Source of the DNA: an uncultured Candidatus Saccharibacteria bacterium
Lineage (GTDB): Bacteria > Patescibacteriota > Minisyncoccia > Phycocordibacterales > UBA12088
NCBI GenBank assembly: GCA_964562615.1
Contig: CAZLUD010000002.1
Span: 153,300-217,299 of the forward strand
Reading direction: 5' to 3'
DNA length: 64,000 nt
Shown here: piece after piece, positions 11,320 to 58,615 of the stretch
How the letters are laid out: the number at the start of each line of letters is the position of its first letter
Position numbering within the stretch: the first letter of the stretch is position 1
Position numbers and translations under genes: made by a program
The notes under the pieces: model-generated
Databases searched by the model: none
Told to the model about the DNA's origin: nothing
What the model saw: only the letters and a program-made list of their open reading frames with translations

Positions 11320-11402
11320 AATATGTATCGTGTTGTCTACCTGCTAGTAATAGTATTCTACATCCCAATCACCACCAATTGCTGGCAGTTGTCCACTATC
11401 AA

Positions 11403-12167: not shown

Positions 12168-12372
12168 GGTTGATGAGGCGCTTCGAAGATTATCATTAGT
12201 GAGTCTATTACTCATGCAAGTGAGGAGTTCAAAGACCAAAAGCGTGTTGACGCATGGCGACAACAGACTACTAGTCACCCGTATATACTACCCCAGATTA
12301 TTGACAAAGTCAAGTTTCCGTGTCGGTCTTCCTTTGTCAGAAATATACGGGTGGTGGTACCATATATATACT

Positions 12373-13500
12373 ATGCAAACACATTCCCCGAAGCCAAAAT
12401 TACCAAACACCCTTCTTACAAGAGACACTGTAGAAAAAGTAGTACTCTACACCGCAATAACTGGAATTGTAGTACTTGCGATTGCCCTTTTTGGTGCTGC
12501 CTTCATAAAAATCCCTACATCAATTCAAACTGCTGCGGTAGAAATTAGCTCGGTGTTTTATCCTGCAGATACTCGTCTACAACTTTCGCTTGAAAGTAGA
12601 TACGTAGAGAACGGTGTCCCTCTTACCCTTTCATGGAGCGCGCCTGCCACTGATATTCCGGGATCATTTTTGTTTGCTTACAAATGCGCACAGGGGCTTA
12701 CCGTGTTTATGGAAAACAGAGATGGTGAGTACGAACCAATTAATTGCGAACAACCAACCGAACCATTAGTAAGTGGCAATCAAGTACGCATTCGCCTCAC
12801 CTCTACTGAAAACCGTTTTCTTGATGTACCCCTTGCGGTTGCCTTTTACCCTGAAGGCGATCCATCACCACTATTTTTCTCACGTGCGTTAGTAACGGTA
12901 GAAAATCCACGCATTGCATTTAGTCCTTCTTTGAGGCCAGATGGCACTGTTGCAACATCAACTACCCCAGATACACCGACACCGCCTGAGACCACCACGC
13001 CTACCCCACCTGCAAAAAAACCTACCGAGCAAACAACACCGCGACAGGGTGCTAGCACCTCAGAATCATTCCAGATTCCTCGCATCGATGGATCTGCGCA
13101 AACCGCCCCTCGTACCCTCACCGGAAAAAGTGATCTGTCAGTAAAAATAATGAATGTAGGATACATTGACGATGCAACAAAAGGATTTGTTATCACCAAT
13201 ACCGTTGAAAAAAACAATGTCAGCGCAGTTATGTTTGCCGTTGAGAACACAGGTACCAATTCATCAGGTTCGTGGGACTTTGCTGCAATACTTCCTACAA
13301 ATCCTCCTTACATATTTCAATCACCAACACAAAGAGAGCTTCTTCCTGGTGAAAGAATTGAATTCACCATGGGCTTTGACCGAGTAAAGGAAGGCGCATC
13401 TTCAGTTGAAATAAAAATCAATATCGACCCTTCACAAAAAATCTCAGAATCAAACGAGACAAACAACTCTACCATCGCTACGATTGGTATCCGTAACTAA
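12373..13500 (+). CDS. membrane-anchored surface protein with C-terminal CARDB domain (paralog 1)
   Basis: N-terminal TM (VVLYTAITGIVVLAIALFGAAF), a conserved about 170-aa domain, a T/P-rich linker and a CARDB-like end (SDLSVKIMNVGY...DPSQKISESNETNNS). Start taken at MQTHSPK (12373). Confidence 0.7.
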   Translation: MQTHSPKPKLPNTLLTRDTVEKVVLYTAITGIVVLAIALFGAAFIKIPTSIQTAAVEISSVFYPADTRLQLSLESRYVENGVPLTLSWSAPATDIPGSFLFAYKCAQGLTVFMENRDGEYEPINCEQPTEPLVSGNQVRIRLTSTENRFLDVPLAVAFYPEGDPSPLFFSRALVTVENPRIAFSPSLRPDGTVATSTTPDTPTPPETTTPTPPAKKPTEQTTPRQGASTSESFQIPRIDGSAQTAPRTLTGKSDLSVKIMNVGYIDDATKGFVITNTVEKNNVSAVMFAVENTGTNSSGSWDFAAILPTNPPYIFQSPTQRELLPGERIEFTMGFDRVKEGASSVEIKINIDPSQKISESNETNNSTIATIGIRN

Positions 13501-14101: not shown

Positions 14102-14130
14102 TTGACATTACTAAACGAGCGTGTTACTAT
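14102..14130 (+). promoter_or_regulatory. sigma70-like promoter TTGACA-17-TACTAT for CARDB paralog 2
   Basis: TTGACA at 14102-14107, a 17-nt spacer, TACTAT at 14125-14130. It lies inside the 5' extension of ORF 14102..15364, which argues for the downstream ATG at 14195. Confidence 0.5.
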
Positions 14131-14194
14131 GCTCCCGCATCAAGTAGTCGGTGCACACAGACCAATTATTCGTTTCGTATTATCAGTATTCATT

Positions 14195-15364
14195 ATGAAT
14201 CAGCAATATCAGAATCCGGGAGATGTGCAGGTAACCATCGAGCACCGCTCAAAGGTTGAAAGAGCAATAACACGCGCACTAGCAGTTATCGGCGTCATTG
14301 CCATTGTCGTTATTGTTATATGGGCAGGGCTTATGGTGGTTCGATCACTACCAACCGCAATTACCGCAGTACAAAATGCTGCCGTAGGACTTACTCAGGT
14401 GTTTTCACCAAAGAAAGAAGAGGCTATTAGCCTTTCAATGAGCACGCTTGTTGCTCGATCTGGTGCTCCATACACCATTGCGTGGGGACACACTACTACT
14501 GAGTCAACTGGCACCTATGCCCTTACCTACTCATGTAGAGATGGACTTTCAGTAGAATCACCTAATACTGATGGTACCTACCAGAGCGCATTTTGTGATA
14601 CTCCATTTAACTTTGCACGATCAAATAGCGAGATTCGCATTGTGCCTACATCAACACAAAATAGATACCTTGATGTACCAATGACCATCTCATACTTCCC
14701 TGAAGGAGCATCAACTCCAACAGTACAGAAGACATTCGTCATGACCATTGAGAATCCATCTGTATCGGTAAGTCCAAGTACTACTGGTGGAACAGTAGCA
14801 ACATCAACTGCCGCTACAAGCACACCAGTCACCACACCGACTACAACTACTCGCCCTACTACAGGCACCACACGACCAACGGGGACAACCACCGTTACCC
14901 CAGGCACTCGTACAGACAATACCTACCAAATTCCTGGTACTGGTGGCAGTACTCCTGGAAGCACTACCGCAAAACCTATCAATCCTAACGGAAAGCCTGA
15001 CCTTGCTGTCAACGTACTAGACGTTGGATACATTGACGCTGCTACCAACAAGTTTGTTGCTGCAAGCTCAGTAAACCGAAGTGAGCGAGTAGCAGTACGA
15101 TTTGAAATTGAGAACAAAGGAAACAATGTCTCAGACTCATGGATGTTCAGCGCGATACTTCCTACCTATCCTCCATTTGTATTCCAATCTCAAACGCAAC
15201 AGAAGCTAAATCCTGGTGAGAAGATTGAATACACCCTTGGATTCGATAAGGTAGCAACTGGAAACTCAGTAGATCTAAAAATATTTGCTGACCAGAGCCT
15301 CAAGATTAACGAATCTAATGAGGAGAACAACATCAAGATTGTTACTATCAACATCAGAGACTAG
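14195..15364 (+). CDS. membrane-anchored surface protein with C-terminal CARDB domain (paralog 2)
   Basis: Same architecture as 12373..13500: TM (ALAVIGVIAIVVIVIWAGLMVV), shared blocks (NRYLDVPMTISYFPEG, ENPSVSVSPS), a T/P linker and CARDB (KPDLAVNVLDVGY...DQSLKINESNEENN). Confidence 0.7.
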   Translation: MNQQYQNPGDVQVTIEHRSKVERAITRALAVIGVIAIVVIVIWAGLMVVRSLPTAITAVQNAAVGLTQVFSPKKEEAISLSMSTLVARSGAPYTIAWGHTTTESTGTYALTYSCRDGLSVESPNTDGTYQSAFCDTPFNFARSNSEIRIVPTSTQNRYLDVPMTISYFPEGASTPTVQKTFVMTIENPSVSVSPSTTGGTVATSTAATSTPVTTPTTTTRPTTGTTRPTGTTTVTPGTRTDNTYQIPGTGGSTPGSTTAKPINPNGKPDLAVNVLDVGYIDAATNKFVAASSVNRSERVAVRFEIENKGNNVSDSWMFSAILPTYPPFVFQSQTQQKLNPGEKIEYTLGFDKVATGNSVDLKIFADQSLKINESNEENNIKIVTINIRD

Positions 15365-24260: not shown

Positions 24261-24767
24261 CTACATTAGACCAAGTTTTCGCCAAAACGAGAGGAGTGTC
24301 TCTGAAGACACTACCCGCCCTACTCCTTCAGCATTTGTATATTCAGGATCGTGATAGAAATAATCTTTTTTGTGTCGCCCCACTATCACCACCTGGTGAT
24401 ACTTATCACGTAGCGCTTCATCAAACCTGCGAGATACTGAAACAATAACTGGCATTCCACGTTCAAGTGCCTCATCCAAAAAATCCAATACTCGCTCATC
24501 AGAGTATTCTTTGATATCAAATCGATTGATGCTCACGTCAAATGAGTTAGCTACCTCGATAAGCTTGTCATGTACCCATCCAGATGGCCCAAATGCATTT
24601 ATGCGTAGCGCGCGAGCGAGCACTTCATCAGGAGAAATATTCTCTTTGCGATGGTAGGCAATAAGCATAGAGAGTGCCGCGATACCGCACGCACGCGGCT
24701 TCCACTCAATGTCAGTAATATGGTCATACTGTGAATAATATGGAACGATAAGTGTCGCTTCTTTCAT
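24261..24767 (-). CDS. peptidase C39-like (papain-fold) domain protein
   Basis: VPYYSQYD...PRACGIAALSML (catalytic Cys context) and YHQVVIVG (His context). The start lies 1 nt after the pheT stop. Confidence 0.7.
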   Translation of the reverse strand: MKEATLIVPYYSQYDHITDIEWKPRACGIAALSMLIAYHRKENISPDEVLARALRINAFGPSGWVHDKLIEVANSFDVSINRFDIKEYSDERVLDFLDEALERGMPVIVSVSRRFDEALRDKYHQVVIVGRHKKDYFYHDPEYTNAEGVGRVVSSETLLSFWRKLGLM

Positions 24768-24768
24768 G

Positions 24769-27114
24769 TTATCTAACGGTATGTCCTAGACTGGTGAGTG
24801 TGTTAGTGATGGCGGTCATACGCTCAAGAATTTCACTATCGGTAAGTGTTTTGGTGCGAGACAAAAACACCAATCGATACGCGTATGATACCTTGCCTTC
24901 CTTTTCAAATTGATCAAACAAATCAATGCGTGCAAGCAATGCTCCTGCCTGTGTACGAATTATGTCTTCTATCTCAAAAGATGAGACCTCATTAGGTACC
25001 CATAGGGCAATATCTCGAAGGGCAAATGGATACTGAGATATAGGCTGATATCGCACGTCATCAGTCTCTTTCAAAAAATCATACGCGACATCTTCGGGTA
25101 TAGTGACATCAGTAATGTCATACTCCACTACGTTGTCTGATTGATGTACCGCGGCGATATCACCTATCACTTCTTGTATACTCTCTGCACCTTCTTCAAG
25201 CATGGTGCGTAGTGTCGCTTCTCGCTTTTTTTGTGTTGTTTCAGCTGCGTATGCAACATGAAGCCGCTCTCCTTCTTTACTAAAGACAATACCAATTTCA
25301 AATATCATAATGTCACTACCTCCCCACAATGGCGCGTGCGGGAGATTCTTTTTTGCCGTAAGGGCGAGTGTCTCGTGTAGTGATTCTCGCAAATGTGATT
25401 TGTCTGAGGCAAGCGCGTTTTTAAGTTCTACCGCTCCTTTATCAAGTAGCGTAGAGGTGATGACTTCATTCCATCCACGTGCAACAAACGCTGCGCGAAG
25501 TCGGTGTGCAATATAGTGATGTGGGTGCGGTACAACCGGCCCATCAAATGGTGGTAACGTGGCAGATGCAATTGCTCGATATCCAGCTATTCTTCCAATC
25601 TCCTCAATAACATCTTCTCTGATACGGATGTCTCTGCGTTCAGCAGGTACAGCAATAACAAATCGCTCATCCTCAGTACCCAACCCCAACATAGAGCGGT
25701 ACCCAACAATGGTAGTAAATCGCTCACTTGTTTGTAGTGGTTCCATCACCACACCGCTACCACCTGTGGAGTGGAGCACCATACCATCTCCCATATAGAT
25801 ACCAACATGATCAACACCAACGGGGACCTTGGTACCCTTTTTGTATTCGATGCTTTCGTAATGAATGGTACCAACACCGGTGTTCGCAAACACCAAATCA
25901 CCAGGCTGAGGGTCAGTGACCTCTGTGCCAAACACATATTGATCTACCGACATACGTGGGATAGCAACCCCACTCATTGCGTACACATATGCCGTAAGTG
26001 ATGAACAATCAAATGTCTCTGGCGCATCGTACCGTATACGCGCGCCAAGCTTGTACGCCTTACCAAGGAGTGTTGGTGCATGCGCGCAGATATGCTGACG
26101 CGGCGCTATTACTTCAAAAGGAAGCTGCGCCCTTGTGAGTAAGGCAACTACTTCTTCTTTGGTGTACGACGTACCAAGGAGTGCATGTATCTCACGCAGT
26201 GAGACGCCTACTTTGTAGGGTGCAGGTAGAGGTACTTCTTGTATCGCCTCACCCACAAGCGTACCCGAAGCTATATCCATAATAAGAGAAACCACTTCAC
26301 GAAGGGCAATGGCAGTGAGTTCGATTGGTGGTTGGTTTTGAAAACGAACAGACGCATCAGTAGCAAGCTTTAATCGTTGTGAGGTTGCGCGTATTGATGC
26401 GTAGTTAAAGTGCCCCGCTTCAACCAAAATAGTTTTTGTGTTTGTATCCACCTCTGCGTGCTTGCCGCCTTTGACGCCTGCTATCCCTATTGGAGTGCTT
26501 GTCACCGCATCATAGATTAGCAGCGTGTCCTTGTTTAGCGTGTAGGTATCACCCGTAAGGGTGGTGATAGATTCGCCATCTTTTGCAGATTGAACCGCTA
26601 GGTTGTACTTCCCTTGTTCATCTTTACCAAGCTTGTCTGCATCAAATGCATGCAGTGGTTGTCCAAGCTCATACATGACATAGTTTGTCGCATCTACGAC
26701 ATTATTGATGCTTTTTTGTCCAAGACGAGTAAGATACTGCCGCAGCCACTCGGGCGATGGTTCAACAGACACCCCTTCAAGAAGCGCTATACGATATGAA
26801 TCACACAGTGAAGGCGACTCAACCGCAACACGCACTCTATCTGTAGCAGGTAGTAGTTGCGGGTGTGGTTGTCGTAGTGGATCTTTTACAAGTGGTATCG
26901 AGAGTATTACAGAGAGCTCACGAGCAATACCAAGGTGACACAGGCAATCACCTGATCTGTTTGCAAGTACATCAACATCAATTATGTCATCGCCATCAAC
27001 ATGAGCTACTCCCTCAATTTCAAATGAGTGAAAGGTGAGTAGTTCAACAAGCTTCTCGCTTGATGGAAGCGTGTCGGCAAAATAGGTCTGAAGCTGAGCG
27101 CGAGAAACTTTCAT
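24769..27114 (-). CDS. pheT: phenylalanyl-tRNA synthetase beta subunit carrying an inserted NlpC/P60-like domain
   Basis: B3_4 region (NNVVDATNYVMYELGQPLHAFD), B5 halves (SLREIHALLGTSYTKEEVVALL ... VPAERRDIRIREDVIEEIGRIAGY) and a C-terminal FDX-ACB-like end. No N-terminal tRNA-binding OB domain. Confidence 0.92.
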   Translation of the reverse strand: MKVSRAQLQTYFADTLPSSEKLVELLTFHSFEIEGVAHVDGDDIIDVDVLANRSGDCLCHLGIARELSVILSIPLVKDPLRQPHPQLLPATDRVRVAVESPSLCDSYRIALLEGVSVEPSPEWLRQYLTRLGQKSINNVVDATNYVMYELGQPLHAFDADKLGKDEQGKYNLAVQSAKDGESITTLTGDTYTLNKDTLLIYDAVTSTPIGIAGVKGGKHAEVDTNTKTILVEAGHFNYASIRATSQRLKLATDASVRFQNQPPIELTAIALREVVSLIMDIASGTLVGEAIQEVPLPAPYKVGVSLREIHALLGTSYTKEEVVALLTRAQLPFEVIAPRQHICAHAPTLLGKAYKLGARIRYDAPETFDCSSLTAYVYAMSGVAIPRMSVDQYVFGTEVTDPQPGDLVFANTGVGTIHYESIEYKKGTKVPVGVDHVGIYMGDGMVLHSTGGSGVVMEPLQTSERFTTIVGYRSMLGLGTEDERFVIAVPAERRDIRIREDVIEEIGRIAGYRAIASATLPPFDGPVVPHPHHYIAHRLRAAFVARGWNEVITSTLLDKGAVELKNALASDKSHLRESLHETLALTAKKNLPHAPLWGGSDIMIFEIGIVFSKEGERLHVAYAAETTQKKREATLRTMLEEGAESIQEVIGDIAAVHQSDNVVEYDITDVTIPEDVAYDFLKETDDVRYQPISQYPFALRDIALWVPNEVSSFEIEDIIRTQAGALLARIDLFDQFEKEGKVSYAYRLVFLSRTKTLTDSEILERMTAITNTLTSLGHTVR
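25669..26109 (-). other. NlpC/P60-like cysteine peptidase/acyltransferase-fold insertion in PheT (aa about 336-482)
   Basis: GKAYKLGARIRYDAPETFDCSSLTAYVY (Cys370), PGDLVF, DHVGIYMGDGMVLHS (His436, His448). The canonical NlpC/P60 motif order and catalytic residues are intact. Confidence 0.7.
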
Positions 27115-30535: not shown

Positions 30536-31045
30536 TTAGTCGACAACTATCTCTACCCCAACAAAAAACAAAACATTTTTATTAGTATCTAAAATGGGTG
30601 AAATCTGTAGCGTCACATTATAAAACTGACCATCCTTTCTCCTGTTTGCGATATTAAGGGTTATTGGGGATTTGTTCGCGATCATCACTGACCACGCCTC
30701 ATCATAAAATTCTTTTGGCATGTGCCCTCCCCAAAGCTCAGACGGTCTTTTACCGATAATCTCTTGTATGGGGTACTGAGTAGCTTCGACTACTGCATTG
30801 TTAACAAACATAATTGCTCCTGTGCTATCAGTGATGATGACTTGCTCTTTCATGGTCTCAAACACACGATTAAGCGTGCCACATCGCAGGCACTTTATCT
30901 CAGCACCATCAAGGCCATGATGCTTTGCTAACAACTTACCGCACTTCATACACCGAACATCTTTAAGTACAGATGGAAGAATGTCTGATGTGGCTACGGA
31001 TGGGTTGTTCATAGGCGAGTAACCACTATATGGTATACCAACCAC
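30536..31045 (-). CDS. Com-like zinc-ribbon fused to a PAS domain
   Basis: CMKCGKLLAKHHGLDGAEIKCLRCGTLN (CxxC...CxxC), then a PAS-like segment IITDSTGAIMFVNNAVVEATQYPIQEIIGKRPSELWGG...RRKDGQFYNVTLQISPI. The start is uncertain (31045 or 31012). Confidence 0.65.
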   Translation of the reverse strand: MVGIPYSGYSPMNNPSVATSDILPSVLKDVRCMKCGKLLAKHHGLDGAEIKCLRCGTLNRVFETMKEQVIITDSTGAIMFVNNAVVEATQYPIQEIIGKRPSELWGGHMPKEFYDEAWSVMIANKSPITLNIANRRKDGQFYNVTLQISPILDTNKNVLFFVGVEIVVD

Positions 31046-31100: not shown

Positions 31101-31176
31101 TGGAGCCAGCAGTCAGATTCGAACTGACGACCTGCCGCTTACAAGGCGGCTGCTCTACCAACTGAGCTATGCTGGC
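31101..31176 (-). tRNA. tRNA-Thr (anticodon UGU), CCA encoded
   Basis: The reverse complement folds as a cloverleaf: acceptor GCCAGCA/TGCTGGC, D stem GCTC/GAGC, anticodon stem GCCGC/GCGGC with loop CTTGTAA, T arm GTCAG-TTCGAAT-CTGAC, discriminator T and CCA. Total 76 nt. Confidence 0.9.
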
Positions 31177-34317: not shown

Positions 34318-34782
34318 CTACCACAACCGTGCTGCTGGGGTATAAATCGCGCCTGTTCTTTGGCCGGTTCTTGCAGGATCCTGTAGCGGGCAAGATCCGG
34401 GGGTACATGCTTCAAGGGCTCCGTGGATAAGTATCTTGTAGTCAACTCCATTAGAGTAGTAGAGATAACAAATACCACTACTTGCCGTACTTGGGAGTGG
34501 GTCCATTGGCATACTAGAAATGTAGGTAGGTACAATACCCGGAATACCAGCGCCACCATAACAGCCAGGACTAGTTCCTTGCCACCCACCCACGACAGGA
34601 TAGTTTCCAAAATCGTTATAGTACATTTCAACTGCTCTTTCTATTTGGCGTACGTCAGCAATACGCCGAGCGTCTCTAGCTTTACCACGCGCACTATTAA
34701 GTGACGCAAACACTACTGAGGAAAGAAGTCCTATGATCGCAATGACGACAAGTAGTTCAATAAGGGTAAATCCTCTTTTCAT
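34318..34782 (-). CDS. type IV pilin-like protein (prepilin N-terminal cleavage/methylation domain), paralog P1
   Basis: MKRG|FTLIELLVVIAIIGLLSSVVFASLNSAR class III signal, with a variable Cys-containing C-terminal domain. Confidence 0.85.
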   Translation of the reverse strand: MKRGFTLIELLVVIAIIGLLSSVVFASLNSARGKARDARRIADVRQIERAVEMYYNDFGNYPVVGGWQGTSPGCYGGAGIPGIVPTYISSMPMDPLPSTASSGICYLYYSNGVDYKILIHGALEACTPGSCPLQDPARTGQRTGAIYTPAARLW

Positions 34783-34797
34783 AAATAAAGTAATGTA

Positions 34798-35274
34798 CTA
34801 GTAACCCCGAGCTCCGGTAGACCAATTACCATACGCCCAACAATCTCTCACTGGGTCTATAAGTCCTGGTGCTTGCGCCTTTACCCCCGCGCAATCTTGA
34901 GGATTATGCCAAATGAGTTTGTAGTCAGCTCCATTGTCTGAACGATAAATATAATTATCACTACAATTAGTAGAATTATTTGGTGACCGAGGGAGTGTAG
35001 GGATATAGTTTGGAGCAAGTCCTGGTATCCAGTTTGTCGTACTGTTGCCCCAGCAGGTATACAACCCGTCATATCTCCCCGATGTGCTTGGGTACGCATT
35101 ATTGTCGTTATAATACAATTCTAGTGCTATTTTTAGCTGCTCAAGATCTGCGATACTTCGAGCATTTCGAGCTTTTTGTCGTGCACTATTAAGTGACGCA
35201 AACACCACCGAAGAGAGTAGTCCGATAATAGCAATCACAACAAGTAGTTCAATGAGGGTGAATCCTCTTTTCAT
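34798..35274 (-). CDS. type IV pilin-like protein, paralog P2
   Basis: MKRG|FTLIELLVVIAIIGLLSSVVFASLNSAR. In tandem with P1, separated by a 15-nt spacer. Confidence 0.85.
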   Translation of the reverse strand: MKRGFTLIELLVVIAIIGLLSSVVFASLNSARQKARNARSIADLEQLKIALELYYNDNNAYPSTSGRYDGLYTCWGNSTTNWIPGLAPNYIPTLPRSPNNSTNCSDNYIYRSDNGADYKLIWHNPQDCAGVKAQAPGLIDPVRDCWAYGNWSTGARGY

Positions 35275-37500: not shown

Positions 37501-38076
37501 TTACCACCCACTGCAGGTGCCTACGCCAATACAATAGTATGGGTCATTACAACCTCCGTTATTGTTATAGTAACTACCGTCCAAATCCCCTGCAAGGCTC
37601 TGATTATTAGCATTTTCAAGACGTACAGCGAGTCGATAACTCTGACCAGTACCGCATCCTGATGGCCACGCATAATAATAGGTTGGGTCCGCATCTGAAA
37701 ACCCTGATGGACTATCTTGTGGGTCTTGAGGAACCTCAGACATAAATACCGGTCGAGAAGATAGACCAAATCCACACGATGCATCACTTGCGGTTTCTAG
37801 ACATTGCGCAAAGTAATCCCAATGCTGATCCCATGTAGGTGCTCCGGGACTACTTGGATAGCGTCCATGGGTGTCATAAAACAATTCTAGTGCGGTGCGA
37901 ATCTGCTGAAAGTCTGCTATACGTTTTGCATCACGTGCTTTACTGCGCGCGCTATTAAGTGACGCAAACACCACCGAAGAGAGTAGTCCGATGATAGCAA
38001 TGACAACAAGAAGCTCGATGAGAGTAAATCCCATCGTGGAGGATTGTCTATGATTTCTCTGTAACAAATTATGCAT
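37501..38076 (-). CDS. type IV pilin-like protein, paralog P3
   Basis: Leader MHNLLQRNHRQSSTMG|FTLIELLVVIAIIGLLSSVVFASLNSAR. The longer ORF to 38157 would run into the divergent kinase gene. Confidence 0.8.
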   Translation of the reverse strand: MHNLLQRNHRQSSTMGFTLIELLVVIAIIGLLSSVVFASLNSARSKARDAKRIADFQQIRTALELFYDTHGRYPSSPGAPTWDQHWDYFAQCLETASDASCGFGLSSRPVFMSEVPQDPQDSPSGFSDADPTYYYAWPSGCGTGQSYRLAVRLENANNQSLAGDLDGSYYNNNGGCNDPYYCIGVGTCSGW

Positions 38077-38132
38077 AACTGCTACACTATATATACAGCA
38101 ATAATAGTATATCAGCTTACCAGTATTTACAC

Positions 38133-39128
38133 ATGGAAAAACTTGATTTTGTAGCAATTGGCGACATCGTAAATGATGAATTCATTGAGCTCTCACCAGA
38201 GTGGACTAAAGTAGTAACAGATACTGAAAGTGGGCGCGAGCTCCTTGCTATGAATTTTGGAGACAAAATTGAGTTTAAAGACTTTGTCATTGTTCCTGCA
38301 GTAGGCAATAGTCCAAATGCTGCAGTAAGTGCGCACCGCTTGGGTCTGCGTAGCGCGCTAGTAACTGATATGGGAGATGATGACGAGGGCGATCAGATGA
38401 TGCGCCAACTTGAGCACGAGGGTGTTGATAGACAATTTATACGAAGACATCCAGGGAAAAAATCAAATCATCATTACGTACTACGCCTTGCCCCTGAACG
38501 AACCATTTTGATTAAGCACGAAGAGTACCCCTACTCACTTCCTGATCTTGGTGAGCCATCATGGATATATTTCAGCTCGGTAGGAAATAACTCCCTCCCG
38601 TATCACCAGGAAATTGCCACGTATGTAAAAAATCACCCAGCAAGCAAATTGGTATTTCAGCCTGGATCGTTCCAAATCAAATTAGGATACGAAGTACTTA
38701 AATCAATATATGAAGCATCTACATTATTCTTTTGTAACAAAGAAGAAGCGCAGAGTATTGTAGGAAAAAAGGAGCTTGATATAAAACAATTACTGACAGC
38801 AATCCATGAAAAGGGTCCAAAAATCGTAGTGATTACTGATGGCCCACGAGGTGCCTACGCAAGCGATGGTACAAACGCCTGGCACATGCCTATGTATCCT
38901 GACATTGCCCCACCTGTTGATAGAACTGGTGCTGGTGATTCATTCTCTTCAACATTTACAAGCGCGCTTGCATTAGGACATGACATACCAACGGCATTGA
39001 GTTGGGGTCCAATTAACTCAATGTCTGTAGTACAAGAGATTGGCGCACAAAAGGGACTCCTCTCTCAAGAAGCAATACAGCAATACCTCCAAAACGCACC
39101 TGCAGAGTACACTCCGACGCTCCTATAG
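38133..39128 (+). CDS. PfkB-family carbohydrate/nucleoside kinase (ribokinase-like)
   Basis: GDIVNDEF near the N-terminus, and the PfkB signature 2 context VDRTGAGDSFSSTFTSAL. Confidence 0.85.
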   Translation: MEKLDFVAIGDIVNDEFIELSPEWTKVVTDTESGRELLAMNFGDKIEFKDFVIVPAVGNSPNAAVSAHRLGLRSALVTDMGDDDEGDQMMRQLEHEGVDRQFIRRHPGKKSNHHYVLRLAPERTILIKHEEYPYSLPDLGEPSWIYFSSVGNNSLPYHQEIATYVKNHPASKLVFQPGSFQIKLGYEVLKSIYEASTLFFCNKEEAQSIVGKKELDIKQLLTAIHEKGPKIVVITDGPRGAYASDGTNAWHMPMYPDIAPPVDRTGAGDSFSSTFTSALALGHDIPTALSWGPINSMSVVQEIGAQKGLLSQEAIQQYLQNAPAEYTPTLL

Positions 39129-39483: not shown

Positions 39484-40476
39484 TTACGCTTGTGTTAAGG
39501 AAATAGCTTTTTGTATGATACTAGGCACATCTAGCCCATACGCAGTGTATAACTCTTGTGTGGTACCAGACTGGCCAAATCGGTTTTGTACCCCTACAAA
39601 CGCCATCTTTGTTGGTCGATTGAGTGATAGGGTTTCTGCTACCGCTCCTCCGAGCCCGGCAATCACTTGATGCTCTTCAACGGTAAGGATGGCGTTAGTT
39701 TCATTTGCAAGTGCTACTATCGCATCGGTATCAAGAGGTTTTATAGTATGTACTGAAAGTACCACCGAGCTAATACCAAGACGAGTCTCTAATTCAACCG
39801 CAGCCTGTATGGCCTGATACACCATGCTTCCCATCGCAATGATACCTACCGTTGGCGCATTTCCTTGCCACACTCTATAGGCCTTCCCTATTTCAAATGG
39901 AGTATCTTTGGTAGTAAGTAATGGGGTATTTTCTCTTGCAAATCTAAGGTACATGGGGCGCTTACTTGTTGCAGCAGCAAGGGTTGCCTTTCTTGCTTCT
40001 TCCATGTCGGATGGGACAATCACGGTCATATTAGGTATCACCCGCATAAGCGCGACATCCTCAAGTGCTTGATGTGTTGCACCATCAGGACCCACCGAGA
40101 GGCCGGCATGCATACCACAAACCACTACTGGTTGCTCATTAAGCGCAATGGTGGTGCGTATCTGTTCATTATTGCGTCCAGGATTAAAAGCGGCGTAGGA
40201 GGTGATAAACGGCACCTTTCCCATTGATGCCATACCACTTGCTACTCCTGCAAGATTTTGTTCGGCAACCCCAAGCTCAATGTACCTATCAGGAAATTTT
40301 TCTTTAAACCAATGACTGCGGGTACTCTCTGCCAAGTCCGCACACAGCACTACTACATTGTGGTCACGCTCACCCGCCTCTACTACCCCCTTACCAAAAC
40401 CATCGCGTGTAGCACCTTCTTCTCTCGCGGTGGCATCAAGTATTCCTTTATGTAATCGGGCTTCTCCTACCAGCAT
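39484..40476 (-). CDS. transketolase, C-terminal (pyrimidine-binding) subunit
   Basis: ATRDGFGKGVVEAG, FPDRYIELGVAEQNLAGVASGMA. Forms a split transketolase with the gene upstream. Confidence 0.9.
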   Translation of the reverse strand: MLVGEARLHKGILDATAREEGATRDGFGKGVVEAGERDHNVVVLCADLAESTRSHWFKEKFPDRYIELGVAEQNLAGVASGMASMGKVPFITSYAAFNPGRNNEQIRTTIALNEQPVVVCGMHAGLSVGPDGATHQALEDVALMRVIPNMTVIVPSDMEEARKATLAAATSKRPMYLRFARENTPLLTTKDTPFEIGKAYRVWQGNAPTVGIIAMGSMVYQAIQAAVELETRLGISSVVLSVHTIKPLDTDAIVALANETNAILTVEEHQVIAGLGGAVAETLSLNRPTKMAFVGVQNRFGQSGTTQELYTAYGLDVPSIIQKAISLTQA

Positions 40477-40477
40477 A

Positions 40478-41341
40478 TTAGTCGTGGTTACTTGGAGTTA
40501 TCTTTCCTCCTAATGTACGAAGTTCTTTGAGCCATCTTAGTTCTTGCTCTTTATTTGGTGGCATACCATGCCATTTATAATCGTACTCGATCTCTTTTAT
40601 TCCCTTACCGGCTATTGCGTGCGCAATAATAAGCGTGGGCTTTTCGTACACTGCTTTTGCTTGTTCTACCGCATCAACAATTGCCTCCATGTTGTGCGCG
40701 TCTATATCAATAACATTCCAATTAAATGCTTCGTACTTGTCTTTGAGTGGCTCAAGAGGCATCACATCTTCGGTCATGCCGTTTATTTGTATATTGTTTC
40801 TGTCTATTATAGCGGTGAGATTTGATAGCTTGTACTTACCCGCAAACATAACCGCCTCCCACACATTACCTGCATCCTGCTCACCATCACCCATCATGCA
40901 ATACGTGCGAAATGGTTTTTTATCCATTCGGGCGGCAAGTGCAATTCCTGCTGCTTGAGAAAGTCCAGTACCCAACGGACCAGAAGTGGTTTCCATTTCT
41001 GGTAACAAAATACGTTCAGGGTGTCCCTGCATACGTGATCCAAATTTTCTAAGTGTTTTAGCTTCTTCAACACTAAAATAACCCGCAAGCGCCATCGTTG
41101 CGTACCGTATAGGAACAATATGTCCGTTAGAGAGGATGAATCTATCCCTCTCCTCAAACATTGGTTCTTTTGGCGAATGATTTAATATATGAAAATAAAA
41201 TGCAGTAAACACATCCGCCATACCAAGCGGACCTGCGGTGTGCCCTGACCCAGCATCCTCAAGCATGTCGATAAGCAATTGCCGTACTTCGTTTGCTTTG
41301 TTTTCAAGAAAAAGTCTTTTTTCTTCTGTGAGATATGCCAT
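40478..41341 (-). CDS. transketolase, N-terminal (TPP-binding) subunit
   Basis: GSGHTAGPLGMADVFTAFYF, SNGHIVPIRYA, MMGDGEQDAGNVWEA. Confidence 0.9.
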   Translation of the reverse strand: MAYLTEEKRLFLENKANEVRQLLIDMLEDAGSGHTAGPLGMADVFTAFYFHILNHSPKEPMFEERDRFILSNGHIVPIRYATMALAGYFSVEEAKTLRKFGSRMQGHPERILLPEMETTSGPLGTGLSQAAGIALAARMDKKPFRTYCMMGDGEQDAGNVWEAVMFAGKYKLSNLTAIIDRNNIQINGMTEDVMPLEPLKDKYEAFNWNVIDIDAHNMEAIVDAVEQAKAVYEKPTLIIAHAIAGKGIKEIEYDYKWHGMPPNKEQELRWLKELRTLGGKITPSNHD

Positions 41342-42593: not shown

Positions 42594-43100
42594 TTATCGC
42601 GAACAAACGGCGTAATTCATATTATACCCTGGGTTAACTGGTACTGTGGCAAAACGAGCAGTATCCTCAGGAGTAGGACTTTCAAGCTGTGCGTACACGC
42701 ACACACTCGTCTGTGATCCATATGGGTGATAAATCATGTAATGATTGCCAGGATCTGGATGCTTTATTTCACCTGATGTAAAACCTGCGTTCATAAGTGC
42801 TCTTGAAACAGACAATGCATAGCTTCCAGTGTCTTGATAATCAAACCAACCACATGAGCATCCCTGCCACCCTGACCCAGCAACTTGAAATGTATTATAC
42901 GTATCATAATACAATTGGAGCGCAGTCATTGCCTGCGAAAGATCTTGCTTTCGCTTTGCATCTCGCGCCTTTCCACGAGCACTATTAAGCGACGCAAATA
43001 CCACCGATGAAAGTAGCCCGATGATGGCGATAACCACGAGTAGCTCAATGAGGGTAAATCCTTTTTTGTTTTTTGCGCGCTGTTGATAATAGGTAAACAT
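42594..43100 (-). CDS. type IV pilin-like protein, paralog P5
   Basis: Leader MFTYYQQRAKNKKG|FTLIELLVVIAIIGLLSSVVFASLNSAR. Confidence 0.85.
   Translation of the reverse strand: MFTYYQQRAKNKKGFTLIELLVVIAIIGLLSSVVFASLNSARGKARDAKRKQDLSQAMTALQLYYDTYNTFQVAGSGWQGCSCGWFDYQDTGSYALSVSRALMNAGFTSGEIKHPDPGNHYMIYHPYGSQTSVCVYAQLESPTPEDTARFATVPVNPGYNMNYAVCSR
42974..43052 (-). repeat. 79-nt segment identical to 44495..44573 (pilin constant region)
   Basis: cacgagcactattaagcgacgcaaataccaccgatgaaagtagcccgatgatggcgataaccacgagtagctcaatgag occurs in both P5 and P6. P4 differs at 3 positions over the same span. Confidence 0.9.
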
Positions 43101-44087: not shown

Positions 44088-44621
44088 TTAGTGGTCAGCA
44101 AACATATACGGGCTATAGCCGTAGCCGCCTCCCGCATAACTGCACCAATAAGTTTCTCCTCCCCAATCATGATATCGCCAACCTCGTACCGCGCATCGCT
44201 CAGGATGACTTGTGTTTTCAAATTGTCCAACGAGGTCATATTTTTGACCTGAACCAGAGCCGTATACATACGTATAGTAGCCATTATTCCACGGACCAGC
44301 ACATGAGGTATTGATAGGATCCTTTGGCAAACTTGGCATATATGCTGTTAAAGCACTTTGTAAGTTATTCCATGACGAATCACAGCTATACCACCACCCT
44401 CCAATTGGATACGCACCATTTGCATCATAATAAAGCTCAAGCGCTATTCTTACCTGCTGTAAATCAGCCTGTCTTTTTGCATCTCGCGCCTTTGCACGAG
44501 CACTATTAAGCGACGCAAATACCACCGATGAAAGTAGCCCGATGATGGCGATAACCACGAGTAGCTCAATGAGTGTAAACCCCTTTCTTGTATTATTACT
44601 TAATGAAGAGAAAGTACCCAT
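44088..44621 (-). CDS. type IV pilin-like protein, paralog P6
   Basis: Leader MGTFSSLSNNTRKG|FTLIELLVVIAIIGLLSSVVFASLNSAR. Confidence 0.85.
   Translation of the reverse strand: MGTFSSLSNNTRKGFTLIELLVVIAIIGLLSSVVFASLNSARAKARDAKRQADLQQVRIALELYYDANGAYPIGGWWYSCDSSWNNLQSALTAYMPSLPKDPINTSCAGPWNNGYYTYVYGSGSGQKYDLVGQFENTSHPERCAVRGWRYHDWGGETYWCSYAGGGYGYSPYMFADH
44495..44573 (-). repeat. 79-nt segment identical to 42974..43052 (pilin constant region)
   Basis: Direct comparison of the two stretches in the sequence shows no mismatch. Confidence 0.9.
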
Positions 44622-45728: not shown

Positions 45729-46259
45729 TTATATACCCCCCGTCGTTACTTTATAATTTGGTCTATTAGAAGAGCCGCACGCACCCGCCCCACCTCGCAA
45801 CCAATTATCTGTACCACTTGCTGGGTTGAGATTATTTTGGGTCTGATCTTCAAGAGTGGCATACAGCGCGTACTGTGTTGCTCCTGCATTTGGCGCAGAA
45901 CAATTGTTATATACGTTGCTTATATATAAATATGAATTGTTGTAACAGCTTCCATCTTGTGGGTCCTTAGGAAAAGTAGGAAGAAACTGTAACATTTTTG
46001 ACTCCATAGCAAGACTTGTCTCAATTTGATAATCAACCGCTGGACATGCGCTAGATGGGTATCCACCATACGTGTCGTAATACAATTCGAGCCCTTTCTG
46101 AAGCTCAGCTAGATCGGCTTTTCTTCGAGCATCGCGAGCCTTTCCACGCGCGGTATTTAATGACGCAAATACTACCGACGAAAGTAGCCCGATGATGGCG
46201 ATAACCACCAGAAGCTCGATGAGGGTAAATCCATGTTTGTATCTTAAAAATTTATGCAT
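45729..46259 (-). CDS. type IV pilin-like protein, paralog P7
   Basis: Leader MHKFLRYKHG|FTLIELLVVIAIIGLLSSVVFASLNTAR. Confidence 0.85.
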   Translation of the reverse strand: MHKFLRYKHGFTLIELLVVIAIIGLLSSVVFASLNTARGKARDARRKADLAELQKGLELYYDTYGGYPSSACPAVDYQIETSLAMESKMLQFLPTFPKDPQDGSCYNNSYLYISNVYNNCSAPNAGATQYALYATLEDQTQNNLNPASGTDNWLRGGAGACGSSNRPNYKVTTGGI

Positions 46260-55071: not shown

Positions 55072-55204
55072 CGGAAACCTCCTAACCTGGGGTTACGCTA
55101 CCTAAAGTGAACCACTTTTTGAAAAGGACGCAAGTCGACAATTCGCCCTTCTAAATTTCTAAAAATCATGTAGTCTGTGTTGGGTCAAATACCTGGAGGT
55201 GGTG

Positions 55205-55609
55205 ATGGGTAAACAAATTGCCCGTGTGCTCTTTGAAAAACTTGTGTTAGTGAACAGCATACTCAAAAGAGAAATTATTGCTGCTAACAAAAAGGATATT
55301 AAAACAATAGTATCCAGTCTTGGAAGCAAGATAGACAGTGCCAAAGCACTAGATGATGCCTGGCGTAACTGGCTCACAATGTGTTGTGATACTCCAGAAA
55401 TTTGCGCGGCAATTAGTATGGTAATACGAATAAGAATATTCGAGCAGCTTGTAGAGTTACATCAAAACTTTAGATCGAATTATGATGCGTTGCAACAACT
55501 GTATGATGAAGGTTGCACAAGTAAAGCAGTGCGTGAATCTCTATTTTTAGTAACACCACCTCCAATAGAAGAAGCCGAGGTGATACATGTTAAGTTCGGA
55601 AAGCGTTAA
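55205..55609 (+). CDS. 134-aa helical hypothetical protein
   Basis: GGAGG at 55195-55199 lies 5 nt upstream of ATG 55205. Divergent from the 78-aa gene. Confidence 0.6.
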   Translation: MGKQIARVLFEKLVLVNSILKREIIAANKKDIKTIVSSLGSKIDSAKALDDAWRNWLTMCCDTPEICAAISMVIRIRIFEQLVELHQNFRSNYDALQQLYDEGCTSKAVRESLFLVTPPPIEEAEVIHVKFGKR

Positions 55610-55623
55610 TTCGCTTTCCGAAC
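55594..55623. terminator. bidirectional hairpin enclosing the stop codons of two convergent, overlapping genes
   Basis: gttcggaaagcg-ttaatt-cgctttccgaac. The TAA of the plus gene and the TTA (stop of the minus gene) lie in the loop. Confidence 0.55.
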
Positions 55624-56058
55624 TCTTCCTTTTATAAGCGCATACACATAGATAATTGCTGAGTATATTGCAAGCGCATATGAGGCAATTCTTGTTCGAT
55701 GAGTTATTTCAACAGTTGCTCCAAAGGCAACATCATAATTTGGGAAGAAGTATATAAACAATATAGTTACAAGAAGTCCTATCAAAAATAGATTTCTAAA
55801 AATTCTAAATTGTCTTGAATTGAAAAAGAGTGATAGTAAAAAAGTAATGAACAGTACTAATCCTAAATTGAGTATGATTGTACGGTCTCCACTCAAAAAA
55901 CTTAATTCACACCAATAAACAGAGCCAAATAACCAATGCGTGTGATTCATTACAGCTTGGCATAACCCAAACGTCCCCGGACTCCATAACACATAGCTTG
56001 TAAATAAAAGCAAAGCCCCTACTACTATGAAAGCTATTTTTTGTATCATGTTTTCCAT
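55606..56058 (-). CDS. integral membrane protein (about 4 TM), unknown function
   Basis: 150-aa hydrophobic ORF that is very AT-rich relative to the rest of the window. Confidence 0.55.
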   Translation of the reverse strand: MENMIQKIAFIVVGALLLFTSYVLWSPGTFGLCQAVMNHTHWLFGSVYWCELSFLSGDRTIILNLGLVLFITFLLSLFFNSRQFRIFRNLFLIGLLVTILFIYFFPNYDVAFGATVEITHRTRIASYALAIYSAIIYVYALIKGRVRKAN

Positions 56059-56062
56059 ATTG

Positions 56063-58492
56063 TTATTTTATCCTACTTCTTAAACTTTCATAAAGCTCTT
56101 TATACAGTGCTCTAAATGCATTCATCTCAGGACTTGCCCACGTACCCATGGTGCGCTTTTTCATTATCTTGTAGCCACCATTAATAACTATAGATGCGGT
56201 ATAGGGGCGGTCCATAGCAATGTACCGTCGTGCATAGTAGAGCTTGTGCAAAAATACCACCTGAAAGTAGCGTGATATAGGAAGCGTAGGTGCCATGGCG
56301 GTTATGTCTGCCATAATAGCTTCTGGATCTCGGTGTCCACTAGTAGGCGTGGGAGTATTTGCGAGTATGTCCTTTTCATAATTTCCATCACCCTCAGTAT
56401 CAACCAAGAATGACGTAAGGGTGCCATCTGGTGCAATAGTAATCTTGGCATCAGTATCAGTAGACACTGGGATATCTGGGTAATTTTTTCCTTGAGTCAC
56501 ACCCGCTTGTGTGACGGTATCAAATGATACTGAGAAAGTACCACTCCCTGTACCAGCTAACTCTAGGTGGTACTCCTCGCCAGTAGGCAAGACTACGTAC
56601 TTGGCATCCCCCACCTCTAGGTAGGCACTGTTAGGGATATCTTCTGTATACGACACCACTTGAGGAGTGTGGATCTGTTTGCCAGTATATTGGCCACTAG
56701 TATTAGTTGCGGCAATACTTATTGGTGAATGAACACCTATGAGGGTGCCTTTAGGGATAAATGATGGTGATGGCTTATTTTTTTCTATAAACATAGTTCC
56801 GAGGTTCTCCTCACGAACTAAATTTTTTATGAGTGAAGCAACTTCCTTTGCTTCGAACAACATTCCATGATCAATATTAATATTATTTAATTTGTTAAAC
56901 CCAAAAACATTAAAATAATACGTCACATTATTATTACTATCCCCCACTACCGTACCGTCCCCATCAAAGGTAAGTTGCGGGGTGTATCGTATAGCATTAT
57001 TTGATGGTGGCTCACCTTCATAGGTAATACCCTCTATCGTTGGTATACCCCACCCTACCACCGTTGTCACCTCTATATTGTTTGGTGCCGTCCATGCATC
57101 AAGGGTGTCATGGAGTAATTGCGCTCTGCTTAATAGCCCTTGATGCAAAGTTGCAGGGGTTTGAATATCATCAAACACAGGTGTATTTCGTAGGTCATGA
57201 CTATCTGTTAAAAAAGTCTCGAGTGATTCTCGTGAAGAGATGTTTTCTCCGTAGGCAAGTCCCCATGTGGAAAGTTTTTGATTATGTGGAAGTATACGCA
57301 CCGCGCTTGTGCCCGCATGCACAAAGTACTCATGTGATGGAAGAAGCACATGTGCACTAATCATATTGTGTATCGCGTCACGCGCATATGGCTCACTAAG
57401 AGCAAGCCCAAAGAAAAACCGTTGTCCATGCCCATGCAGGAGCGACCCTACCGCACTTGGCGTGCCAGTCTCTGGCGTACCTACCGTTACAAATTTATCT
57501 ACTAAGTCTTCTTTGCCTTGGCGAACAAGTTCATCGATAAGAAGCTTTCCTACCAAGCCTCCCATTGAGTGCGCGACAATGGTTACCTTTCCTGTTTGCG
57601 ATTTCTCAGCTAGGCTCTCTAATTCATGCACCATGGTGGTACCTCCGTCCTTCGTATTAATCACCCCACGCGCAATAGTCTCTATATCTAATCGCCAATC
57701 ATATGGTTGCGCATGCCATTCATTAATATCTCGGGTTTCTTTAAGAGCATCTAACGAAGCAAAAAACTGGGTATAAAAATGCGACGAACCAGCACTCGCT
57801 ATTACCTCATTGGTATAGATATCTTTTTTGCTTGTACCATCACTATTCATGGCAAGCTCTGAGGAGTCATAGTTCCCTACAAACAATTGCGGTGGCCATA
57901 GCTGATCATTGCTATCTTGCACATACAAATCACTTCCTGAAATACCAGGGATAAAAAAGACGTTCGAGCAACAATCTTCAGTACGATTTTCTGCGTAGGT
58001 GAAGGTAATAGTGTCATACGAGAGTGGCGGATTCCCTTTTGTACCTCCAGAGGTAAACCAGTCATATCCATTTTGCGGATTTCCTGGTTGTGGCTTCGTT
58101 ACTACCACAGTATACGTACCAAATGGTGCACTTTTTAGTGACAAAAATCTATTTGATAACACCACGGACCCTGCATTCCATCCCTTAAATCCAAACCCAG
58201 AGTACGCGGGATCAGTATTACCAAAGGTTCCCTTAAACACTCCTATTCCTCCATCAGGAAAAATAGCCGGTGCATCAGATGTAAATCGAAATGTCCAACT
58301 ATCCCCCATGTTAGTAAGGTCTTCAGGAACTATAACTGCCCCATCAGTAATCACCTTGCCGCCGGTGGTTACCGACGTAAAGAGCACAGAAGCAAATGCA
58401 GGTGTTGGAACAAAAAAAGCACCAACGGTGCATACAAAAACTACGTATAAAAAAATATGGTGGAGCCCCCTATAATGTGCCAAAGGCGACAT
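56063..58492 (-). CDS. secreted LCAT/PGAP1-like alpha/beta-hydrolase (lipase/acyltransferase) with N- and C-terminal beta-rich extensions
   Basis: AQPYDWRLD (the LCAT-family YDWR motif) and the nucleophile elbow VTIVAHSMGGLVG (Ser codon at 57566-57568). Start at MSPLAHYRGLHHIFLYVVFVCTVGAFFVPTPAFA (signal peptide), with TAGTAT 8 nt upstream. Confidence 0.72.
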   Translation of the reverse strand: MSPLAHYRGLHHIFLYVVFVCTVGAFFVPTPAFASVLFTSVTTGGKVITDGAVIVPEDLTNMGDSWTFRFTSDAPAIFPDGGIGVFKGTFGNTDPAYSGFGFKGWNAGSVVLSNRFLSLKSAPFGTYTVVVTKPQPGNPQNGYDWFTSGGTKGNPPLSYDTITFTYAENRTEDCCSNVFFIPGISGSDLYVQDSNDQLWPPQLFVGNYDSSELAMNSDGTSKKDIYTNEVIASAGSSHFYTQFFASLDALKETRDINEWHAQPYDWRLDIETIARGVINTKDGGTTMVHELESLAEKSQTGKVTIVAHSMGGLVGKLLIDELVRQGKEDLVDKFVTVGTPETGTPSAVGSLLHGHGQRFFFGLALSEPYARDAIHNMISAHVLLPSHEYFVHAGTSAVRILPHNQKLSTWGLAYGENISSRESLETFLTDSHDLRNTPVFDDIQTPATLHQGLLSRAQLLHDTLDAWTAPNNIEVTTVVGWGIPTIEGITYEGEPPSNNAIRYTPQLTFDGDGTVVGDSNNNVTYYFNVFGFNKLNNINIDHGMLFEAKEVASLIKNLVREENLGTMFIEKNKPSPSFIPKGTLIGVHSPISIAATNTSGQYTGKQIHTPQVVSYTEDIPNSAYLEVGDAKYVVLPTGEEYHLELAGTGSGTFSVSFDTVTQAGVTQGKNYPDIPVSTDTDAKITIAPDGTLTSFLVDTEGDGNYEKDILANTPTPTSGHRDPEAIMADITAMAPTLPISRYFQVVFLHKLYYARRYIAMDRPYTASIVINGGYKIMKKRTMGTWASPEMNAFRALYKELYESLRSRIK

Positions 58493-58513
58493 ACCACTAC
58501 ATACTACCACAAA

Positions 58514-58541
58514 CGAAAAAGCCCCCGAAGGGGCGTTTTCG
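58514..58541 (-). terminator. rho-independent terminator after the Wzy_C/TPR gene
   Basis: Minus-strand reading: cgaaaacgcccc-ttcg-ggggc, followed by tttttcg. Confidence 0.7.
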
Positions 58542-58615
58542 TAGATTTTCTTGGAAGCCTCACAACTTTCGAGGCACTCACAAAAGAAGTATAGCAGACA
58601 AATCGTAAATGTCAA

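Follow-up and report, generated by a model that had tools for sequence, protein, structure and literature searches.

The 64-kb stretch of DNA analyzed here (64,000 nucleotides; hereafter the window) comes from contig CAZLUD010000002.1 of an assembly labeled as an uncultured Candidatus Saccharibacteria bacterium. On its minus strand it encodes a predicted exported alpha/beta-hydrolase of the LCAT/LPLA2 type, immediately followed by a gene for a small membrane protein, hereafter the partner. A preliminary description of the stretch, made from the letters and their open reading frames (ORFs), had singled out the hydrolase as a secreted LCAT-like lipase or acyltransferase. The gene and its parts are as follows:

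56063-58492, minus strand: coding sequence of the exported LCAT/LPLA2-like hydrolase, 809 aa, ATG to stop, stop codon included
58391-58492, minus strand: Sec-type signal peptide, residues 1-34, with a basic n-region, the core IFLYVVFVCTVGAFFV and then PTPAFA/S, the slash marking the predicted cleavage site
57977-58390, minus strand: variable beta-rich N-terminal module, residues 35-172, no Pfam match, low model confidence
56783-57976, minus strand: LCAT/LPLA2-type catalytic domain, residues 173-570, an alpha/beta-hydrolase core with inserted subdomains
57692-57703, minus strand: YDWR motif, residues 264-267, aligned with PYDWR of LPLA2
57566-57568, minus strand: nucleophile Ser309 in AHSMGG, invariant, aligned with the LPLA2 nucleophile
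56957-56959, minus strand: catalytic Asp512 in DGDGTV, invariant, on the second Asp of LPLA2 GDGDGTV
56867-56869, minus strand: catalytic His542 in NIDHGML, invariant in both homolog samples, after the last core strand in the model
56378-56770, minus strand: conserved C-terminal beta-sandwich, residues 575 to about 705, from the AlphaFold model
56066-56377, minus strand: linker and C-terminal up-and-down four-helix bundle, residues about 720-809 with the helices at 723-808, from the AlphaFold model

The hydrolase and its family

The reading frame is genuine, as had been claimed: it runs for 809 codons from ATG to stop, the ratio of nonsynonymous to synonymous substitution rates (dN/dS) indicates purifying selection, and a protein identical to the hydrolase is present on public contigs. 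A longer form with a TTG start at 58615 was rejected as unlikely because its 41-residue extension is unlike a signal sequence, a terminator-like hairpin crossed by that extension lies between TTG and ATG, and public gene calls on the identical protein take the ATG. From the ATG, the protein opens with a Sec-type signal composed of an n-region, a 16-residue hydrophobic core, and AFA/S at residues 32-35, and its AlphaFold model has a helix at residues 9-27. This signal agrees with the secretion proposed earlier, as does the hydrophobic N-terminal segment present in 39 of 47 homologs, none of those 39 showing a transmembrane-like segment past the N-terminal region. A lipoprotein reading was rejected, as there is no lipobox and the cysteine of the signal peptide is missing from the orthologue.

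By every sequence and fold criterion examined, the catalytic domain belongs to the LCAT family, in keeping with the preliminary assignment. The Pfam LCAT family (PF02450) matches residues 257-494 with an E-value of 3e-12 and 46.9 bits, against a gathering cut-off of 21, and the catalytic domain extends well past this match in both directions; a search of NCBIfam with the hydrolase protein gave no match. Searched as a single sequence against PDB sequences, the hydrolase found LPLA2 weakly (E 0.013), and a profile of 36 homologs brought this to 3.6e-8, placing the serine of AHSMG on the LPLA2 nucleophile, a column in which the S165A mutant chain 4x92 shows Ala. The AlphaFold model has a mean pLDDT (predicted local distance difference test score) of 78.7, with values above 90 across most of residues 173-570, and Foldseek searches with it returned LPLA2 and LCAT as top matches (E 4e-12 to 1e-7); the whole-domain fold of the family, a hydrolase core with inserted subdomains, is present.

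The motifs lie where they had been reported, YDWR at residues 264-267 and AHSMGG at 307-312. Conservation was examined in an alignment of 36 homologs and in a second sample of 44 proteins picked through the C-terminal module, not through the catalytic domain. Invariant in the first are Y264, D265, W266, R267, H308, S309, G311, G312, G511, D512 and H542, and all of these positions are still invariant in the second except D265, which is at least 90% conserved. Asp512 and His542, the catalytic residues that the preliminary description had left to be confirmed in a proper alignment, are thus invariant in both samples. Because the residue-level hidden Markov model (HMM) alignment to LPLA2 ends before His542, this residue is assigned, by invariance and position, as the probable counterpart of LPLA2 His359 and LCAT His377. 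Together, these observations support a predicted exported LCAT-family alpha/beta-hydrolase with an intact Ser-Asp-His triad.

The regions on either side of the core proved different from those first outlined, which were beta-rich extensions of about 200 aa at the N-terminus and about 350 aa at the C-terminus. The N-terminal module comprises 138 aa (residues 35-172). The C-terminal extension comprises about 240 aa and is beta only in its first part, a beta-sandwich, the rest being a four-helix bundle. Pfam searches with the N-terminal module, the C-terminal module and the partner proteins returned sub-threshold noise and nothing significant. Structure searches with the flanking domains, which had been suggested along with profile searches, gave only generic fold matches. 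The N-terminal module is proposed to be a targeting or adhesion domain.

Rates of change differ along the locus. Relative to an orthologous locus (L082), whose hydrolase is 80% identical to that of the window over its whole length, SecA, Obg, GatB and the Wzy_C/TPR protein are 89-95% identical at the amino-acid level. Within the hydrolase, identity to the orthologue is 64% in the N-terminal module, 83% in the catalytic core, 86% in the beta-sandwich and 92% in the helical tail, making the N-terminal module the fastest-evolving part. The partner is 65% identical to its L082 counterpart and 47% identical to a second L082 copy. Both genes are under purifying selection, with dN/dS of ~0.13 (0.135) for the whole hydrolase gene, 0.09-0.20 for its mature domains, ~0.5 for the short signal peptide and ~0.3 for the partner, values that are rough because dS is ~1, near saturation.

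The host was presumed from the outset to belong to the Candidate Phyla Radiation (CPR, or Patescibacteria), and this is upheld by SecA, whose nearest named relatives (61-68% identity) are all Parcubacteria, Kaiserbacteria, Paceibacterota, Taylorbacteria or members of the 'Patescibacteria group', a placement in Parcubacteria/Kaiserbacteria; the gene content of the window, with a split transketolase, pilin-like genes, and a sortase together with a giant surface protein, agrees. A word-indexed search with the hydrolase returned 55 relatives of 450-1315 aa, all with an LCAT match, and the few named ones are from CPR bacteria. In a scan of one genome per species, full-length matches (residues ~170-710) came almost solely from metagenome-assembled genomes (MAGs) of Patescibacteria, with other phyla matching in the catalytic core only, apart from a 2.9-kb contig binned as Thermosynechococcus and some MAGs that have no label beyond 'bacterium'. 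This near-confinement of the full architecture to CPR-labeled genomes appears to be a new observation and rests on genome labels, several of the 'uncultured Candidatus Saccharibacteria' MAGs being automated submissions.

A search of 1.84 billion cluster representatives with a profile of the C-terminal module alone matched 616 clusters at an E-value cut-off of 1e-30 and 2785 at one of 1e-10. Of the best 150 matches, the long proteins (~550-1450 aa) hold the module at the C-terminus or at most ~85 residues from it, and the shorter matches may be gene fragments. All 44 sampled carriers of the module also have the LCAT domain. N-terminal modules in 45 sampled members are diverse, including Beta_helix (13), NosD (5) and FIMAH (3), with single cases of LVIVD, DUF642, CBM96, SpaA-like and other domains, a pectate-lyase-like one among them. 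The least conserved domain across the family is the helical tail, with a mean identity of 18%. The family-wide succession of signal peptide, variable binder, LCAT core, sandwich and four-helix bundle appears to be new, and a literature search of incomplete coverage found no paper linking LCAT, 'cholesterol acyltransferase' or PF02450 with CPR bacteria.

The partner gene

While the enzymatic and taxonomic reading of the preliminary description held, it had missed the domain boundaries, the helical C-terminal bundle and the gene downstream. The partner and the elements that bound the gene pair are as follows:

55606-56058, minus strand: partner gene, 150 aa, four predicted membrane segments, co-oriented with the hydrolase and starting 4 nt past its stop
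55593-55624, no strand assigned: hairpin with a 13-bp stem, the putative 3' end of the two-gene unit, recognized by consensus pattern only and shared with a convergent ORF
58511-58534, minus strand: terminator-like hairpin (GCCCC-TTCG-GGGGC) with a trailing T-run, lying between the hydrolase ATG and the Wzy_C/TPR gene upstream of it

The pair lies between two terminator-like hairpins (58511-58534 and 55593-55624), an arrangement that fits one transcription unit, and the first of these sets it apart from the upstream Wzy_C/TPR gene. The window partner has no Pfam match, and all-against-all clustering of neighbors at the BLAST level in 44 loci gave no conserved neighbor; the family was recognized by position, size and hydrophobicity, and then by phmmer and profile searches. 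About 20 of 32 CPR loci have a co-oriented ORF of 88-150 aa (mostly 110-150) located 0-40 nt past the LCAT-like gene. The proteins encoded by these small downstream ORFs have two to five predicted membrane segments, in most cases at least three, and the partner proteins are mutually homologous, with phmmer E-values down to 1e-36. Shared features include a basic N-terminus, a Cys pair in the first outer loop, F-x-x-W-x-K-F before the third segment, and an L-Y-x-x-I-S-L segment before a basic tail. A family profile built without the window protein found members in 18 loci, sometimes two per locus, and matched the genes downstream of P0003 (E 5e-27) and P0004 (E 1e-24), the nearest non-orthologous relatives of the window hydrolase.

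A search for the partner family covering 5.8 billion proteins yielded at least 244 members, all of 124-175 aa (nearly all 124-154) and none with a Pfam domain. They are named 'hypothetical' or 'uncharacterized membrane protein' throughout, and those with an organism name are from CPR bacteria. The association also holds in reverse: of five partners on long contigs drawn from this search, every one is preceded on its own strand by an LCAT-domain gene whose end lies 3-40 nt away, and their other neighbors all differ. This obligate-looking pairing of the hydrolase with an unannotated membrane-protein family appears to be new. In the largest partner subfamily, strong conservation of both predicted outer loops hints at an interaction outside the cytoplasm.

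The window partner fits the family in size, in its four hydrophobic segments, in its Cys pair and in its position. Its motif before the third segment, however, reads FRIFRNLF, and its score against the family profile is weak, as discussed below, with alignment over nearly the whole profile; the tandem partner paralogues in L082 score better (E 0.0014 and 0.0089); on this basis the window copy is taken, with moderate confidence, as a divergent member. Additional partner copies occur nearby in four loci (L004, L010, L016 and L082). In L010, two copies lie ~3 kb apart (8871-11700) with two ~360-aa ORFs and smaller ORFs between them. In L082, the partner gene is duplicated in tandem (143 and 154 aa), and the window has a single copy.

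Several minor features surround the pair. A near-consensus sigma-70-type promoter match (58588-58615, minus strand; TTGACA, 16 nt, TG-extended TATACT; 11 of 12 positions) begins directly after the stop codon of the Wzy_C/TPR gene and upstream of the hairpin at 58511-58534, which a transcript from it would reach within a ~88-nt leader; promoter match and hairpin could be a chance combination or an attenuator-like arrangement. L082 has two extra genes at 9072-9952, between its Wzy_C/TPR gene and LCAT-like gene, one encoding a protein of 93 aa that includes a hydrophobic stretch and the other a pilin-like (N_methyl) protein of 192 aa, and the window has none at 58493-58615. The convergent ORF at 55199-55609 (plus strand, 136 aa) is a gene in public records, has no Pfam match, and has a 134-aa counterpart in L082 with 60% identity.

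Possible roles of the gene pair

The CPR accounts for a sizeable part of bacterial diversity. For most of its members, fatty-acid synthesis and complete phospholipid synthesis have been reported as absent, yet their membranes consist of ordinary acyl lipids and are unusually rich in lysolipids (PMC7242380). The gene pair is usable as a genomic marker to relate to lipid-gene content and host range. The present locus is a concrete and widespread candidate for how these bacteria obtain lipids, belonging to a family of exported LCAT/LPLA2-type enzymes that spans hundreds to thousands of 50%-identity clusters.

The closest known enzymes are lysosomal phospholipase A2 (LPLA2, PLA2G15) and lecithin:cholesterol acyltransferase (LCAT), which like PDAT belong to PF02450 and to which the window hydrolase is ~15-19% identical. 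These enzymes are eukaryotic, whereas the window family is bacterial and almost entirely CPR-labeled, its members are two to three times longer, and it has an additional variable N-terminal module, a beta-sandwich, a four-helix bundle and a dedicated partner gene. The eukaryotic enzymes contain disulfides; the mature window hydrolase has only two cysteines, adjacent at 174 and 175, so disulfides of the eukaryotic type cannot form. A C-terminal beta-sandwich after an alpha/beta-hydrolase, as in the window hydrolase, also occurs in BlEst2 of Bacillus licheniformis (PDB 6wpx) and in Thermoanaerobacter EstA3, where it has been reported to inhibit the enzyme or to enable the use of long-chain substrates. 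The window core is nevertheless nearer to LPLA2 than to BlEst2, and the CPR family adds the four-helix bundle, the variable N-terminal module and the partner gene. A likeness in idea exists with Vampirococcus lugosii, a CPR predator without phospholipid synthesis, whose predicted secreted phospholipase may both supply lipids and harm the membrane of the host (PMC8080830). That proposal concerns one gene, from another CPR lineage, and is likewise a prediction; no conserved partner or family-wide architecture was described (PMC8080830).

The locus is probably, with moderate confidence, a two-gene unit. One gene would encode an LCAT/LPLA2-type serine enzyme that is exported and works at interfaces, either a phospholipase A or an acyltransferase, and the other a small dedicated membrane protein. 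Sec would export the 809-aa precursor, and the signal peptide would be cut off after Ala34. The variable N-terminal module may then tether the enzyme to a target surface, most likely the envelope of a host bacterium; being swappable and fast-evolving, this module is best explained as a binder of a foreign surface. Ser309, Asp512 and His542 would attack an acyl ester, presumably of a membrane glycerolipid, and either free a lysolipid and a fatty acid or hand the acyl chain to an acceptor, as with LCAT and LPLA2. The beta-sandwich and four-helix bundle may regulate or position the enzyme, acting as an inhibitory or substrate-binding domain like that of BlEst2 or as a docking module, and the putatively co-transcribed membrane protein may shield the producer's own membrane or anchor the enzyme there. 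For a Parcubacteria cell, the likely use would be to obtain or remodel acyl lipids or lysolipids from other cells. Lipid harvesting or scavenging, the purpose put forward in the preliminary description, is plausible. It agrees with two published ideas, namely that the lysolipids in which CPR cells are rich may be products of a phospholipase A and may be taken up from other cells (PMC7242380), and that Vampirococcus might be fed by a secreted phospholipase (PMC8080830). No fab, pls or fak gene was found among the scanned ORFs of at least 150 aa, a scan that covered the 64-kb window only, a small fraction of the genome.

Several points weigh against this interpretation. Sequence cannot tell a hydrolase from an acyltransferase, nor a phospholipid from other ester substrates, and the structure search with the flanking domains gave generic fold matches only. 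The window partner matches the family profile at just E 0.045 (among 4897 ORFs), though it aligns over nearly the whole profile, and a mirror-tree comparison of the partner with the hydrolase domains gave Spearman coefficients of 0.19 (tail) and 0.41 (sandwich), with unstable partial correlations. The neighbors of the pair in the window lineage are envelope genes (Wzy_C/TPR, flippase and MurB), which also fit a role at the producer's own envelope, and the Beta_helix, CBM96 and DUF642 modules of relatives could point to polysaccharide-bound esters instead of lipids.

A more far-reaching version, in which enzyme and partner form a Parcubacteria-wide lipid-acquisition machine, is considered unlikely. 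Acyl chains or lysolipids would here be stripped or transferred from the host membrane, and the partner would receive them or insert them into the CPR membrane, or else shield that membrane. If true, such a machine would explain both the origin of CPR membrane lipids and their lysolipid richness.

It is similarly doubtful that the pair is an antagonistic lipase toxin with a membrane immunity protein, like Tle4 (TplE, PA1510) and Tli4 (PDB 4r1d), serving mainly to harm or lyse membranes of host, prey or competing cells, with lipid nutrition as a by-product. The tight linkage to a small, fast-evolving gene (65% identity to the orthologue, compared with 80% for the enzyme, and dN/dS of ~0.3), the added partner copies in four loci, which resemble immunity-gene arrays, and the varying N-terminal targeting module are all in line with this explanation. 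However, no secretion-system or toxin-delivery genes lie nearby. Tle4 and Tli4 are a type VI effector pair, whereas the window enzyme would be exported by a plain Sec signal peptide, and no VgrG, Hcp or PAAR Pfam families occur among the scanned ORFs of the window; with no type VI context, the hydrolase may work like the Tle4 class but is not a member of it. The window partner, a putative immunity factor in this reading, is predicted to be a polytopic membrane protein and shows no detectable relation to Tli4. Known immunity proteins of the Tli type are lipoproteins or soluble proteins of the periplasm, not polytopic membrane proteins. Also, the enzyme gene sits in a stable, syntenic housekeeping context, not in a variable island. 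A toxin role is in any case compatible with the phospholipase or acyltransferase reading and not exclusive of it.

The same overlap applies to remodeling of the producer's own envelope, which is seen as quite improbable. The enzyme would in that case act on the outer leaflet or surface polymers of the producer, making lysolipids or acylating a surface glycopolymer or protein, and the partner would anchor it or present the substrate. Enzymes of the LCAT family act as true acyltransferases, and an integral-membrane partner suits an enzyme acting at its own membrane. The envelope genes next to the pair, for a Wzy_C/TPR protein resembling O-antigen ligase, a polysaccharide flippase, a methyltransferase and MurB, are found again in L082 and L037. 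The reported enrichment of lysolipids in CPR cells would also fit (PMC7242380). Set against this, the envelope neighborhood is not family-wide and the partner alone is conserved, while a swappable, fast-evolving binder is easier to explain with a foreign, variable target. Should antagonism or self-remodeling turn out to be the role, enzyme and partner would remain a new system built around a known catalytic scaffold.

Reuse of the LCAT-like scaffold as a non-lipid carboxylesterase (a deacetylase or feruloyl-type enzyme) acting on a polysaccharide or polyester is very unlikely. In its favor, many relatives have N-terminal domains of a carbohydrate-related kind, with Beta_helix or NosD in 18 of the 45 sampled and, in addition, CBM96, DUF642 and a pectate-lyase-like domain. 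Against it, a membrane-protein partner is hard to account for with a polysaccharide esterase.

Other features of the window

Surface-associated genes are found elsewhere in the window. A sortase gene (11403-12278) lies just upstream, on the same strand, of the gene for a predicted surface protein of 2258 aa that contains SdrD_B, SpaA and CarboxypepD_reg-like domains, the two spanning 4543-12278 on the minus strand, and CARDB-domain proteins are encoded close by at 12166-13500 and 14102-15364 (plus strand). At least six type-IV-pilin-like genes with an N-terminal methylation motif are scattered among housekeeping genes that include GAPDH, ribulose-phosphate epimerase and a split transketolase (39484-41341); among them are the following:

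34318-35274, minus strand: type-IV-pilin-like gene
37501-38157, minus strand: type-IV-pilin-like gene
42594-43100, minus strand: type-IV-pilin-like gene
44088-44621, minus strand: type-IV-pilin-like gene
45729-46259, minus strand: type-IV-pilin-like gene

The phenylalanyl-tRNA synthetase beta subunit (24769-27114, minus strand; 781 aa) has a domain of the NlpC/P60 cell-wall-peptidase type at residues 351-463 (Pfam E 8e-16), inserted between its B3_4 and B5 domains, and directly downstream is a Peptidase_C39-like gene encoding 168 aa (24261-24767). In a 169-aa protein encoded at 30536-31045 (minus strand), a Mu Com-like zinc ribbon (Pfam E 7e-11) occurs together with a PAS domain, and the gene for this protein adjoins a tRNA-Thr(TGT) gene at 31101-31176.

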